A DNA stretch of 64,000 nucleotides, taken from Escherichia phage ManiWeber_Bas99. The position numbers and the translations under genes were made by a program. Below are positions 53,587 to 59,655 of this stretch, piece by piece. The stretch is from the sequence record PQ850618.1; one strand, given 5' to 3'. Within the stretch, counting starts at the first letter, position 1. Each line of letters begins with the position of its first letter. Below the pieces are notes generated by a model. It was not told the origin of the DNA. It worked only from the letters and a program-made list of their open reading frames with translations, and made no database searches.

Positions 53587-53594
53587 ATATCAAA

Positions 53595-53625
53595 AAAGGT
53601 GAGCTAAATGCTTGCCTTTTCTTTT
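53595..53625 (+). terminator. rho-independent terminator (copy 1 of a duplicated cassette)
   Basis: AAAGGUGAGC-UAAAU-GCUUGCCUUU (two G-U pairs) followed by UCUUUU. Confidence 0.5.
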
Positions 53626-53640
53626 ATCAATACTTATACT
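53612..53640 (+). promoter_or_regulatory. sigma70-like promoter (TTGCCT-17-TATACT) overlapping the terminator
   Basis: The -35 lies inside the terminator 3' arm; -10 TATACT at 53635-53640. Confidence 0.4.
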
Positions 53641-54841: not shown

Positions 54842-54846
54842 TTCAA

Positions 54847-54877
54847 AAAGGTGAGCTAAGTGCTTGCCTTTTTATTT
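54847..54877 (+). terminator. rho-independent terminator (copy 2 of the duplicated cassette)
   Basis: Near-identical to the 53595 hairpin, followed by TTATTT. Confidence 0.5.
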
Positions 54878-54891
54878 GTCTGTATTATACT
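54864..54891 (+). promoter_or_regulatory. sigma70-like promoter (TTGCCT-16-TATACT) overlapping the terminator
   Basis: Same architecture as the 53612 promoter. Confidence 0.4.
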
Positions 54892-55700: not shown

Positions 55701-55920
55701 AGCCCGTTTATTATTCATCAAGCCGCATGTGCCGTATAAGATTAGTAAGCGCACCTGGCTTAACATTTACAACCGCAGCGGCGACCGTTGTTTGTACAAG
55801 GCAAAGCGGCGCAAGAAGGTATATTTAAAGGCGGTGATGTCCCAGCCCGTCGATGCATTCAACATCGGCGAAAATGAATTGTCAATCGGCTATCAAATTG
55901 AACTAGGAGCAAAGAAATGA
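55684..55920 (+). CDS. hypothetical basic protein
   Basis: 78 aa ORF. Confidence 0.4.
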   Translation: MTSNLKARLLFIKPHVPYKISKRTWLNIYNRSGDRCLYKAKRRKKVYLKAVMSQPVDAFNIGENELSIGYQIELGAKK

Positions 55921-56417
55921 AAATCGAACAACTCGAAGCAGTATTGGAAATGGCTGTAAAGGCAGGCGCAATCAGAAGCTATAGCCGCGAGAAGTCGGAT
56001 GATGCTGCGCACTTTTGTCGCAACTTCTATATTGTCGGCAACCTTAACGACCACTACACCATCGAGTGGTATACTAATATGATGACGCTTAAGTCGCGCA
56101 CCATGGAGCTTTGGTGCAATGACATTTGCTTATCCAACACTCATCCATCCTACGACGTGGCATTGGCATTCTATTACGGAAGTCATCAACCAGTAGCCCA
56201 CATTGGTGAGAAGCATGAGCACTTGAAGAAGCCAGAAGAATCTCATGAAGGTTGGATTGAATGGTCTGGCGGCAAGAATCCGGTGCCTGGTAAAAAGGTC
56301 ATGTTGATGTGGAGGAATGAAGAGAAGTCTTCTTATTCATCCAATTCAGAAGGATGGCTATGGCAGCACAACGGAAGCATTTATGACATTATCGCTTATC
56401 GCGTCGTGGAGGAATAA
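55917..56417 (+). CDS. hypothetical protein with GG-NPVPGK / AYRVV C-terminal domain
   Basis: 166 aa; C-terminal WIEWSGGKNPVPGKKV...IIAYRVVEE shared with the 57299 gene. Confidence 0.45.
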   Translation: MKIEQLEAVLEMAVKAGAIRSYSREKSDDAAHFCRNFYIVGNLNDHYTIEWYTNMMTLKSRTMELWCNDICLSNTHPSYDVALAFYYGSHQPVAHIGEKHEHLKKPEESHEGWIEWSGGKNPVPGKKVMLMWRNEEKSSYSSNSEGWLWQHNGSIYDIIAYRVVEE

Positions 56418-56758
56418 TGGAAGAGCAAGAAGGCCGTGAGCTAACGTTCGACGAGCAAATGCAAGAGCTTCAGCGCACATCGCCGCTGCGCGGTAAGGTT
56501 GTTGACATCGAGGCGAGCGAATCCAATCTCACCCAGTGGCGGCTTAAGTGCACCAGCACAAGCAAGGATATGTTAAGCTTCAAGGTCGGTCAGACCTATT
56601 TGCTTTATGAGGCAAAAGGACTTATTATTGATGGAAGGCAAATTGTCTTCACGGTAGTCAGCGGAATGCGTTGGTTTGTGAAGCGTGATGTCGAGGGCCG
56701 TGACATGTTTGTCGCAGGCTTTCCAGAAACAAGATTCCAATTGGAGAAGGTTAAATGA
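56417..56758 (+). CDS. hypothetical protein
   Basis: 113 aa ORF. Confidence 0.45.
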   Translation: MEEQEGRELTFDEQMQELQRTSPLRGKVVDIEASESNLTQWRLKCTSTSKDMLSFKVGQTYLLYEAKGLIIDGRQIVFTVVSGMRWFVKRDVEGRDMFVAGFPETRFQLEKVK

Positions 56759-57087
56759 AATTGAAATGGTATGTGGACCCTGAGCCGACAGGCTCATACA
56801 GGTCATTCCAACGTCGCGGCTGGCCGATTTGTTACAGCGGCAATCCCGATAAAGAAGACTGCGAGGTGCTTGCCGCGATAGTAAGTCTTAATCATGACGG
56901 CTATGAAGGCCACTACGCGAGAGCAACCAACCTTCGTCTCAAGGTGCGCATCCATTTCAAGGTCGCAGGCGAGGACCGCACCGGACTCTCCAAGGAAGAG
57001 TTCAGCAGCATTGCCGAAGCAAAGGCATGGCTCAAGGCGTTCTACAAGAACAATCCTAAATTTTATCCAACTAAGGGTGCATTATGA
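56755..57087 (+). CDS. hypothetical protein
   Basis: 110 aa ORF. Confidence 0.45.
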   Translation: MKLKWYVDPEPTGSYRSFQRRGWPICYSGNPDKEDCEVLAAIVSLNHDGYEGHYARATNLRLKVRIHFKVAGEDRTGLSKEEFSSIAEAKAWLKAFYKNNPKFYPTKGAL

Positions 57088-57302
57088 CCGATAATCAATA
57101 CGCAGTCGGGCAACGTGACATCGAGCAACTCGACGAGGGCGGCTATTATACGCGCCACATCTATGCCATGACTCATGAAGGACTTTACAGCAAGTCGGAC
57201 ATCGCCGCTGAACTGGCCCATCGTGACTTGCAAATTGACCTTCTCAAGATAGAAATTCAAAACTTACGCAACACCCTGTTAAACACCTGGAGCTTAAAAT
57301 GA
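57084..57302 (+). CDS. hypothetical protein
   Basis: 72 aa ORF. Confidence 0.4.
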   Translation: MTDNQYAVGQRDIEQLDEGGYYTRHIYAMTHEGLYSKSDIAAELAHRDLQIDLLKIEIQNLRNTLLNTWSLK

Positions 57303-57724
57303 TACAGCGTTACGACCTGACATATGACGTGGCATCAGACGATTTCGCCGTCACTCCCGTTCCAGAAAGTCATGAAGGACGTTTTGTTGCATATGAGGAC
57401 TATGAATCACTACTCAAGCTTAATGAGTCGCTAACAAAAGAGATTGAGCAATACCGCGAGCGCATCAAAGCCGCTGAAGATGTTATCAAGCTTTTTAGCG
57501 AGGCTGTTGAGAAATACAAGGAGCGAAACGTACCGATTAAGGAGGAAGCGTGGACCGTGTGGTTTGGTGGCGTGAATCCGGTGCCTGGGAAGATGGTTGA
57601 GTTTGAATTACTCAACGGTTATAAGTCAAAAGGTGCTGTTCCTTCGGATAGTTTGACATGGGATAAAGTCACAAGCCCGACTGGTGCAAAGATTGTTGCT
57701 TATCGGGTCGTTAAGGAGGGGTGA
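57299..57724 (+). CDS. hypothetical protein with GG-NPVPGK / AYRVV C-terminal domain
   Basis: 141 aa; C-terminal WTVWFGGVNPVPGKMV...IVAYRVVKEG paralogous to the 55917 gene. Confidence 0.45.
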   Translation: MIQRYDLTYDVASDDFAVTPVPESHEGRFVAYEDYESLLKLNESLTKEIEQYRERIKAAEDVIKLFSEAVEKYKERNVPIKEEAWTVWFGGVNPVPGKMVEFELLNGYKSKGAVPSDSLTWDKVTSPTGAKIVAYRVVKEG

Positions 57725-58173
57725 TGGGTAACAAGCTTATCGCCGCTGGTTGGGCCATACCGAAGTGGGCTCATCGTGCGCACTACTTTGATGAAGGAGA
57801 AGTGCAAAGCCTTTGCGGTCGCGCAACGTATTTCGGTGATGAGCGCGTCAGCGGCGATTACATTGACTCGCTTTTAGGTAAAGGTGATTGCAAGAAATGT
57901 CAGGATATATTAAGAGATATTCTGACGCAAAAAGGATTGCTTGAGCTTGATGAGTCGGAGGAAGTAATAGAGCTTAAGCTTGAAGCCAATCACCTTATTA
58001 ATATGTTCAAGAATTATTACTTAACGAATATGCGCTCAAAGATGCGTGAGGAAGTAATAAAAGAGGTGCTCACTTACAATCCGTTAAGGATGAATAAAAC
58101 TAAACTGAAGAAGTTTAATGCAATGGTAAGAAAGGAATTTAGACGGCTTGGAGTGAAGAATTTTATATTTTAA
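57721..58173 (+). CDS. hypothetical protein
   Basis: 150 aa; last gene of the rightward early operon, followed by a terminator. Confidence 0.45.
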   Translation: MMGNKLIAAGWAIPKWAHRAHYFDEGEVQSLCGRATYFGDERVSGDYIDSLLGKGDCKKCQDILRDILTQKGLLELDESEEVIELKLEANHLINMFKNYYLTNMRSKMREEVIKEVLTYNPLRMNKTKLKKFNAMVRKEFRRLGVKNFIF

Positions 58174-58190
58174 TTATGATTAATGTTAAG

Positions 58191-58214
58191 AGGGCCAATC
58201 GGCCCTTTTTATTT
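58191..58214 (+). terminator. rho-independent terminator
   Basis: AGGGCC-AATC-GGCCCT hairpin followed by TTTTATTT. Confidence 0.6.
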
Positions 58215-58710
58215 GCCTGTGTAATGGGAGGCTTTTGTGGTTATTTACGATTCAAGGCTGTAATTTAAGAGAGCGAAAATATTATAATAATTTATCAAGA
58301 TTATTGCATATTGTGGCAATCAACGTTTATACGTATTTATGACAGTTTAATCCACTAAATAATACGGATAGAACAGTGAGGAAAATACAGCGGTGTATTT
58401 TAGTGTAAATATTGAATCAAAAATAAATAATTATGGTGCTATTATATACGCAGATTGTTTGTAATTTATAGGATATTTTATCGTGGAGTATTGGCTAACG
58501 GTGCGTTAGCCGTGGGTCTTGGTGCTTGTGGTGTTGATGCTCAGAATTTTAATAATGTTTTTAGTTTTAGTAATCGTAGTCAATGATGATACGTATAAGA
58601 AAATGAGAGTCACCCCTTCACAGGATATTGTACCGTGGCCCTGTGGCGCGCCGCGCCTGGGATTGCTGGTATACACTGGTGCTATTTTGCCGCGAAGGCA
58701 GTCATTCATA

Positions 58711-58952
58711 CGTATCATGACGTATCATTGGGCTATTGATTTATAAGGAAAAATACGCTGATACGGATGATACGGATGCAAACATAATATATATAGAATT
58801 CCAGAAAATTAATTAACTCCATTTTGAATTAATTTAAATTAATTTTTTTCTACATCCTCATACTTATACTAAACTTATATTTATACGTATTATCCGTAAG
58901 ATATAAGTAAAAACAAAGACTTGCGGCAATACGGATGATACGTCATGATACG
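58711..58952. repeat. iteron-like repeat element B
   Basis: CGTATCATGACGTATCA (58711-58727), GATACGGATGATACGGATG (58759-58778), AT-rich core with GAATTC, TTATCCGTAAG (58889-58899), ATACGGATGATACGTCATGATACG (58929-58952); same units and core as the element at 6.6 kb. Confidence 0.6.
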
Positions 58953-59166
58953 CTTCAACCAGCCAGCAGCGGCTAAGTCATTGATTTGCATAGCAAGCGG
59001 CGAAAGGGATGGATTTCTTTTATACGTATCAAACAGTACACCACGCACCACGGTCCGTTATCCATTCAGCAATATGATTTGTGTACGTTTATAGCCATAA
59101 TGAACATCAATCTGCACTTGAATATAATGTTCATCCATTGTATAATTCACACTATTAATTTGCACT

Positions 59167-59655
59167 ATGGGATTTTGCACTATGAGTCAAGATTATGTAG
59201 CGATGCCTGAAGACTTTGAAGACCCGCGATTTGCAGAGCACAATCAGGCTTTATTCGATGAGTTCATTGACCTTGTTATTCAGGGCCATGACATGCGCGC
59301 AGCTTTTGCACTAGTATTTGGAATGGAAGTTGCAACGGATAACTACACTGGCCAGCGAATCCTTTGCACGCAACGCAATCCATACTACAAGATGCGCTTC
59401 AAAAAGCGTATGGAAGAGATGCCACTCAAGGATTTGTGGAGCGTAAAAGGTGCAATTCACAATTTGGTTAAGCTTGTGCGTGATCCAGAAGTCGCAGCGT
59501 CAGCCAAGCTTAATGCTATTCGTGAACTGAATATCATCTACGGCATCACGATGATTGATGAAAACGGCAATAGTAAAATGGGCCGTTCCATGGACGATTT
59601 CTACAAGGATTTTGGAGAGGCGGCCAAAGAAGGTGAGCAATTCTCCCGCCACTAG
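59167..59655 (+). CDS. hypothetical protein
   Basis: 162 aa (alternative ATG at 59182); both candidate starts are immediately preceded by a copy of the TTTGCACTAT motif. Confidence 0.45.
   Translation: MGFCTMSQDYVAMPEDFEDPRFAEHNQALFDEFIDLVIQGHDMRAAFALVFGMEVATDNYTGQRILCTQRNPYYKMRFKKRMEEMPLKDLWSVKGAIHNLVKLVRDPEVAASAKLNAIRELNIIYGITMIDENGNSKMGRSMDDFYKDFGEAAKEGEQFSRH

Follow-up and report, generated by a model that had tools for sequence, protein, structure and literature searches.

Two small open reading frames (ORFs) of Escherichia phage ManiWeber_Bas99, here called ORF A and ORF B, have the same C-terminal module attached to N-terminal parts between which BLASTP found no similarity. The two proteins are modular fusions, each with a different N-terminal part joined to one Trp-rich, mostly beta domain of about 57 residues. 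In our judgment, there is about an even chance that this domain serves as a non-catalytic docking module. The window, which is the whole 64,000-nucleotide stretch of DNA that was analyzed (sequence record PQ850618.1), comes from a Wifcevirus-type E. coli myophage. Its closest record is that of Escherichia phage HermannAdler_Bas98, to which it is 96% identical over 54.5-59 kb. The features of the window are as follows.

54845..54891, + strand: hairpin that overlaps a sigma70-like promoter (TTGCCT-N16-TATACT) and heads the sub-operon of ORF A and ORF B
55917..56417, + strand: ORF A, 166 aa, with an N-domain, a linker and the C-terminal module (ORF list)
55917..56231, + strand: N-domain of ORF A (residues 1-105), predicted as one helix and then an 8-strand beta meander; corresponds to phrog_21861
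56241..56414, + strand: module copy A (residues 109-166; HMM envelope 109-166, E = 1e-24)
56276..56290 (module A) and 57574-57588 (module B), + strand: 15-nt core GAATCCGGTGCCTGG, which codes for N-P-V-P-G (DNA alignment)
56295..56381, + strand: hypervariable centre of module A (residues 127-155), seen by entropy, with discrete variants and sub-mosaics
56417..57302, + strand: three small ORFs between ORF A and ORF B, at 56417-56758, 56755-57087 and 57084-57302 (ORF list)
57299..57724, + strand: ORF B, 141 aa, with a short N-segment, a coiled coil and the module (ORF list and mosaic alignment of 14 orthologues)
57401..57529, + strand: coiled-coil segment of ORF B (residues 35-77; heptad statistics)
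57539..57721, + strand: module copy B (residues 81-141; HMM envelope 81-141, E = 6e-21)

ORF A, ORF B and their genomic setting

An earlier, sequence-only reading of this DNA had placed the two ORFs at these coordinates and had described them as having unrelated N-terminal halves and a common C-terminus. Both ORFs lie exactly there, on the + strand, and the description was borne out. BLASTP aligned residues 110-166 of ORF A with residues 82-140 of ORF B (42% identity over 59 positions, E = 3e-10), which is significant. The motif quoted in that reading, W-x-x-W-x-GG-x-NPVPGK-x-V ... AYRVV-x-E, was found in both ORFs, and only its length for the shared part, about 50 aa, needed correction, as the module is somewhat longer at about 57 aa. 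Both modules cover positions 1-59 of the family HMM, which scores them at E = 1e-19 to 1e-25, and a six-frame scan of the 64-kb window with the HMM found no module copies beyond these two. At the DNA level, both contain GAATCCGGTGCCTGG as a core of 15 identical nt.

The AlphaFold model of full-length ORF A (mean pLDDT 84) has two domains with a low-confidence linker between them, and the N-terminal 104 residues match the whole of phrog_21861. In ORF B, the 43-residue coiled coil has 85% hydrophobic residues at heptad positions a and d compared to 20% elsewhere (p = 0.0005 vs shuffles). The PHROG matches of the three ORFs between A and B are all of unknown function, and the PADLOC defence profiles gave no match for ORF A, ORF B or four neighbours.

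The structural genes of the phage lie at 1-28.5 kb on the + strand, and the replication genes (DNA polymerase, helicases) lie at 28.7-46.2 kb on the - strand. A + strand operon begins at 46.3 kb with a sigma70-like promoter, a primase and a primase-helicase, and then has about 30 tightly packed small ORFs that extend to 58.2 kb. The last part of this block contains ORF A and ORF B. Across the homologous regions of 15 genomes, every gene is annotated as "hypothetical protein."

The hairpin and promoter at the head of the sub-operon belong to a unit of about 60 nt, of which a second, near-identical copy is found at 53594-53640. Both units contain the hairpin AAAAAGGTGAGC-TAART-GCTTGCCTTTTT followed by TTCATCAAG, of which none is expected by chance, and the promoter spacer across the two is N16/17 (TTGCCT-N16/17-TATACT). 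WFC annotates a terminator at the homologous site. These units are probably the terminator/promoter punctuation of the small-ORF operon. From the promoter unit and the position of the ORF block, early or middle transcription by the host RNA polymerase is plausible. Past the block, 58173-59167 is a stretch of about 1 kb with a low GC content (0.39), no long ORF and promoter-like sites clustered on both strands. It may hold genome ends or a regulatory region, since the corresponding position is close to the start or end of several GenBank Wifcevirus records.

Size, spread and predicted fold of the module family

An exhaustive HMMER search with a three-sequence profile, the kind of search that the sequence-only reading had proposed for the C-terminus, returned 1,596 representative clusters (50% identity) at E <= 1e-3, 88 of them at E <= 1e-10. 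A word-indexed protein search with the 65-aa module alone gave one match, the query being too short for that method. When the profile was iterated on the best 150 proteins, a module length of 57 residues was obtained with the consensus EDGWIEWSGGECPVPGTRVEVRLRDGEESKEGKADDLRWSHDGSAADIVAYRVVEEG. The family motif, GW-x-x-W-x-GG-x-x-P-V ... V-x-V ... W-x-H ... D-I-x-A-Y-R over about 57 aa, is present in both ORF A and ORF B. In total, 261 module instances were counted in 153 proteins, with one to four copies in each. Of these proteins, 82 have the module at the C-terminus, 32 have it at the N-terminus and 23 have it internally, while the other 16 are essentially the module alone. One apparent "5-copy" carrier, P0027, a MucBP/LPXTG surface protein that looked like a Gram-positive extracellular carrier, was rejected as a partial-match false positive.

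A query with a 74-sequence alignment against an annotated database added 495 proteins, many of 54-70 aa and all "hypothetical"; none of the 120 listed homologues has a precomputed Pfam domain. With the consensus as a tblastn query, the module was found in 216 sequenced phage isolates. Their hosts are all proteobacterial and include Escherichia, Klebsiella, Pseudomonas, Burkholderia, Salmonella, Rhizobium, Aeromonas, Sinorhizobium, Caulobacter and Edwardsiella. Gp326 of Sinorhizobium phage phiM19 consists of two module copies and nothing more.

The module is predicted to fold autonomously and to be mostly beta. The AlphaFold model of the isolated module has a pLDDT of 92 and a pTM of 0.74, and a Foldseek search recovered this fold from 28 viral proteins of BFVD (E <= 1e-3, TM 0.74-0.93). 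Trp makes up 5.7% of module residues compared to 1.9% in partner segments. The module is mildly acidic, with a mean net charge of -3.0 (+1 for module B), which amounts to -0.049 per residue vs -0.038 in the partner segments. Since only 3 of 269 carriers have a TM-like segment, the carriers are taken to be cytoplasmic.

Pfam and NCBIfam gave no match to the module of ORF A or ORF B at E <= 0.1, and the same was true for four distant carriers. No PDB sequence matches the module, and the fold search found no pocket or structural relative and no nucleic-acid-binding fold. Literature searches on Wifcevirus, DUF3310, DUF6378 and general terms found no description of it. PHROG profiles 9174, 16943 and 11995 were matched independently by both C-termini at differing profile positions, and these families, together with PHROG 26870, contain the same module. 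All four are of "unknown function," with no name or structure. Each groups whole proteins and does not define a domain, and the differing partners of the module are the reason why it is distributed over several of them. The module is so far unnamed, implicit only inside several PHROGs without function, and no name, model, structure or paper was found for it.

Several known domains resemble the module in general character. Like it, the WW, SH3 and Tudor domains are beta-rich adaptors of about 35-60 aa with conserved Trp that occur repeated and fused. A WW domain profile (2ysb) matched weakly (E = 0.14), and assignment to that family, which would call for a three-stranded sheet with two signature Trp and for significant similarity in sequence or structure, was not supported. 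Other promiscuous short domains, such as DUF551, are known from lambdoid "ea/nin"-type accessory proteins; in phage accessory regions, they too stand by themselves or are joined to many partners. A module copy without a partner lies beside NinX, and the Pfam searches described above, which included DUF551, gave no match.

More than 100 unrelated partners were seen for the module, which also exists by itself and in tandem arrays of up to four. The 186 non-module segments of the 269 carriers fell into 136 clusters, of which 111 were singletons. Helical or coiled-coil N-termini recur among the partners. The recurrent enzymatic partners, all in other phages, are MazG-like: DUF3310/SaV-like (five carriers), DUF6378 (three) and dATP/dGTP diphosphohydrolase (three). 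The module can sit on either side of these enzymes and is not part of the MazG fold, and neither ORF A nor ORF B has a MazG-like domain. In four look-ups of their contexts, stand-alone copies were found only in phage or prophage accessory regions and had no conserved neighbour: one copy has NinX beside it, one belongs to an early-left operon that also encodes RecT and an exonuclease, one lies between structural modules and one is close to Lar.

Two carriers deserve separate mention. P0053, a 602-aa protein, has a second, different repeat at residues ~74-331 (…FAELKQAHAQGKxIQV…W…W…YRIK…) without a Pfam match, and this type of repeat accompanies the module in a few metagenomic proteins. ORF56 of Burkholderia phage vB_BpP_HN01 (locus L028, 2189-2671) has the module at its C-terminus and is annotated as "polynucleotide kinase." Pfam gave no support for a kinase, so this annotation is probably wrong.

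The N-domain of ORF A can also be found on its own. It occurs without the module in the Wifcevirus phages AV128 and Mansfield (108 aa, with the next gene directly after) and in a Phapecoctavirus (phAPEC8_0046, 99 aa, 47% identity). These proteins, together with the many partners and stand-alone forms of the module, uphold the proposal of the sequence-only reading that a shared module sits on divergent proteins. The AV128 and Mansfield orthologues further suggest that the module is dispensable on ORF A.

Variation and exchange among Wifcevirus phages

Variation among the orthologues of ORF A is concentrated in the module. In 13 A proteins, the mean pairwise identity was 87.4% for the N-domain vs 57.9% for the module. 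In 52 A orthologues, the mean Shannon entropy was low in the AYRVVEE tail (0.30 bits) and the N-domain (0.31), higher at the module edges (0.74) and highest in the centre (1.81; residues 127-155). The conserved edges, GW-x-x-W-x-GG-x-NPVPGK and DII-AYRVV, flank a hypervariable centre of about 30 residues. At least 10 discrete variants of the centre were distinguished in 28 modules, along with sub-mosaics that join halves of different variants. A variant that one phage has at position A can occupy position B in another, and homologous recombination carries the variants from gene to gene (A and B) as well as from phage to phage. In all 12 panel genomes that have both modules, the central variants of A and B differ.

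Phage ECML-117 carries a natural A/B chimera (locus L018, 3165-3677, which corresponds to 55917-57724 of the window). Its gene follows A up to nt ~360 (~350-375) and B from there on. The switch falls in the GG-NPVPGK motif, and ECML-117 has lost the three genes in between along with the N-terminus of B. The 15-nt core common to the two copies of the window falls within this crossover zone. The deletion chimera is attributed to the repeat homology between the two module copies. Truncated or frameshifted copies were seen among the metagenomic sequences.

Within variant classes, pN/pS was 0.23-0.47 for the module vs 0.15-0.27 for the A N-domain, which indicates purifying selection; positive selection by point mutation was not supported within these classes. 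The diversity of the module therefore comes mainly from allele exchange, not from positive selection on point mutations. A diversity-generating retroelement target was considered and rejected on the pattern of variation and the template repeat: the variation consists of whole-segment replacement and crossovers instead of point changes, and the window has two copies only, without a template-like third copy.

The orthologues of ORF B range from 133 to 222 aa, with two modules in tandem in the ECO71P1 protein. Residues 1-80 of ORF B (57299-57538; loci L006-L019) are mosaic as well, with two to three alternative first segments. Its coiled coil has two alleles that are unrelated in sequence and equally heptad, and the three segments of ORF B occur in mixed combinations. 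Kaset and CWP003 have insertions of 50-80 aa bounded by a repeated DYAALEAKYSE motif.

A comparable exchange is described for the receptor-binding domains of phage tail fibres in Wifcevirus and other phages (PMC11990801). There, too, conserved flanks enclose a highly variable, horizontally exchanged segment, near-identical phages are involved, and variants are scattered across the phylogeny (PMC11990801). The module differs in that it belongs to small cytoplasmic proteins of an accessory, replication-side operon, not to the virion, and in that its variable unit is only about 30 residues within a 57-aa domain.

Possible roles of the module

The conserved residues look like a scaffold, and the centre is hypervariable. 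Because the module is too small and too promiscuous for an enzyme, is multivalent, has enzymes among its cargo and places scaffold-like residues around a variable surface, we infer that it is a non-catalytic docking module that binds a ligand or protein. The invariant residues (three Trp, GG, Pro, Ile and Tyr) would be the scaffold, while the variable central hairpin and loops would be the specificity surface. Display would be multivalent, by way of the coiled coil of ORF B and, in other proteins, of tandem copies. The module would bring its fused cargo, which in other phages includes MazG-like dNTP pyrophosphohydrolases, to a target in the cytoplasm that is probably polymorphic. Against docking, recombination between the conserved flanks could have produced the hypervariability as a neutral side effect, with no selection on a binding surface, and selection within variant classes is purifying, not positive. 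The conserved aromatics could also be exposed and make up a ligand site instead of the core.

The sequence-only reading had taken the shared module as a sign of a common binding target. A shared, independently evolving module was found, but the central variants of A and B always differ, which makes a single common target doubtful. This difference is as good an argument for separate specificities, or for separate epitopes on a polymorphic target, as it is for one target. A common target is, thus, not favoured over related but distinct specificities.

A more specific form of the docking module is rather unlikely but worth stating. Here, the module would be an intracellular specificity cassette with a new fold, whose central hairpin re-targets accessory proteins or MazG-like enzymes to polymorphic host factors, for example variable defence proteins. 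That its alleles are traded among phages in the manner of tail-fibre receptor-binding domains is part of this proposal and is held just as tentatively.

Another possible explanation, which we consider unlikely, is that the module is a self-association (oligomerization) domain that forms homo- or hetero-oligomers and possibly links ORF A with ORF B. The module is often found beside coiled coils and in tandem arrays, and two module proteins are encoded in one operon, as this would predict. However, ORF B already has a coiled coil for oligomerization, and stand-alone proteins of about 57 aa would be without cargo. A hypervariable centre, with A and B variants that differ within a genome, is also unexpected for self-recognition.

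The MazG-like partners raise the question of a small-molecule ligand, since these NTP pyrophosphohydrolase families are the only recurrent enzymatic partners. The module could bind a nucleotide or signalling nucleotide and act as a sensor or sponge, alone or on nucleotide-hydrolysing enzymes. Its invariant Trp and Tyr would suit this role, and its tandem and stand-alone forms resemble known phage sponges. This is distinctly unlikely, as nucleotide-enzyme partners were seen in only about 10 of 150 carriers, neither a pocket nor a structural relative was found in the fold search, and a hypervariable centre would be unusual for a site that binds a fixed metabolite.

It is improbable that the module has no specific function of its own and is a recombination-prone selfish coding cassette or neutral passenger, its diversity being a by-product of exchange at conserved flanks. 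Such a passenger should not be conserved at the protein level across distant phages with unrelated DNA, show the pN/pS of 0.23-0.47 or have a confident predicted fold. Cassette exchange, the sub-mosaics, the deletion chimera, the truncated or frameshifted copies and the loss of the module from A in two phages would all be accommodated by it.

Binding of nucleic acid or mimicry of DNA is very improbable, even though some carriers are located in replication gene clusters and some partners are nucleotide enzymes. The mean net charge of -3.0 leaves no basic surface for binding. The module is no more acidic than the partner segments, and module B is at +1, so there is no signature of a DNA mimic either; no nucleic-acid-binding fold was matched. 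Finally, a chance or low-complexity artefact is already refuted by the pairwise E-value, the independent PHROG matches of both proteins, the 1,596 clusters and the recurrence of the fold in BFVD.

As a kind, the module is familiar: it is a promiscuous small adaptor domain of phage accessory proteins that evolves by cassette exchange like tail-fibre receptor-binding domains (PMC11990801). The ECML-117 chimera is a clean natural example of shared modules driving gene fusion and deletion in phage genomes. With no Pfam model and no structural relative, the module is a candidate for a new domain entry and for structure determination. Most phage accessory genes are unannotated, and a 57-residue domain in more than 1,500 clusters provides a handle on many of them by splitting them into a common module and variable cargo. 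A cassette-like variable centre within conserved flanks is the pattern usually seen where phage and host interact. Should the module prove to be a targeting device, differences in productive host range among close Wifcevirus phages could be explained in part by its variants, and if it is a specificity cassette, it would represent a general, previously unrecognised targeting system of phage counter-defence.
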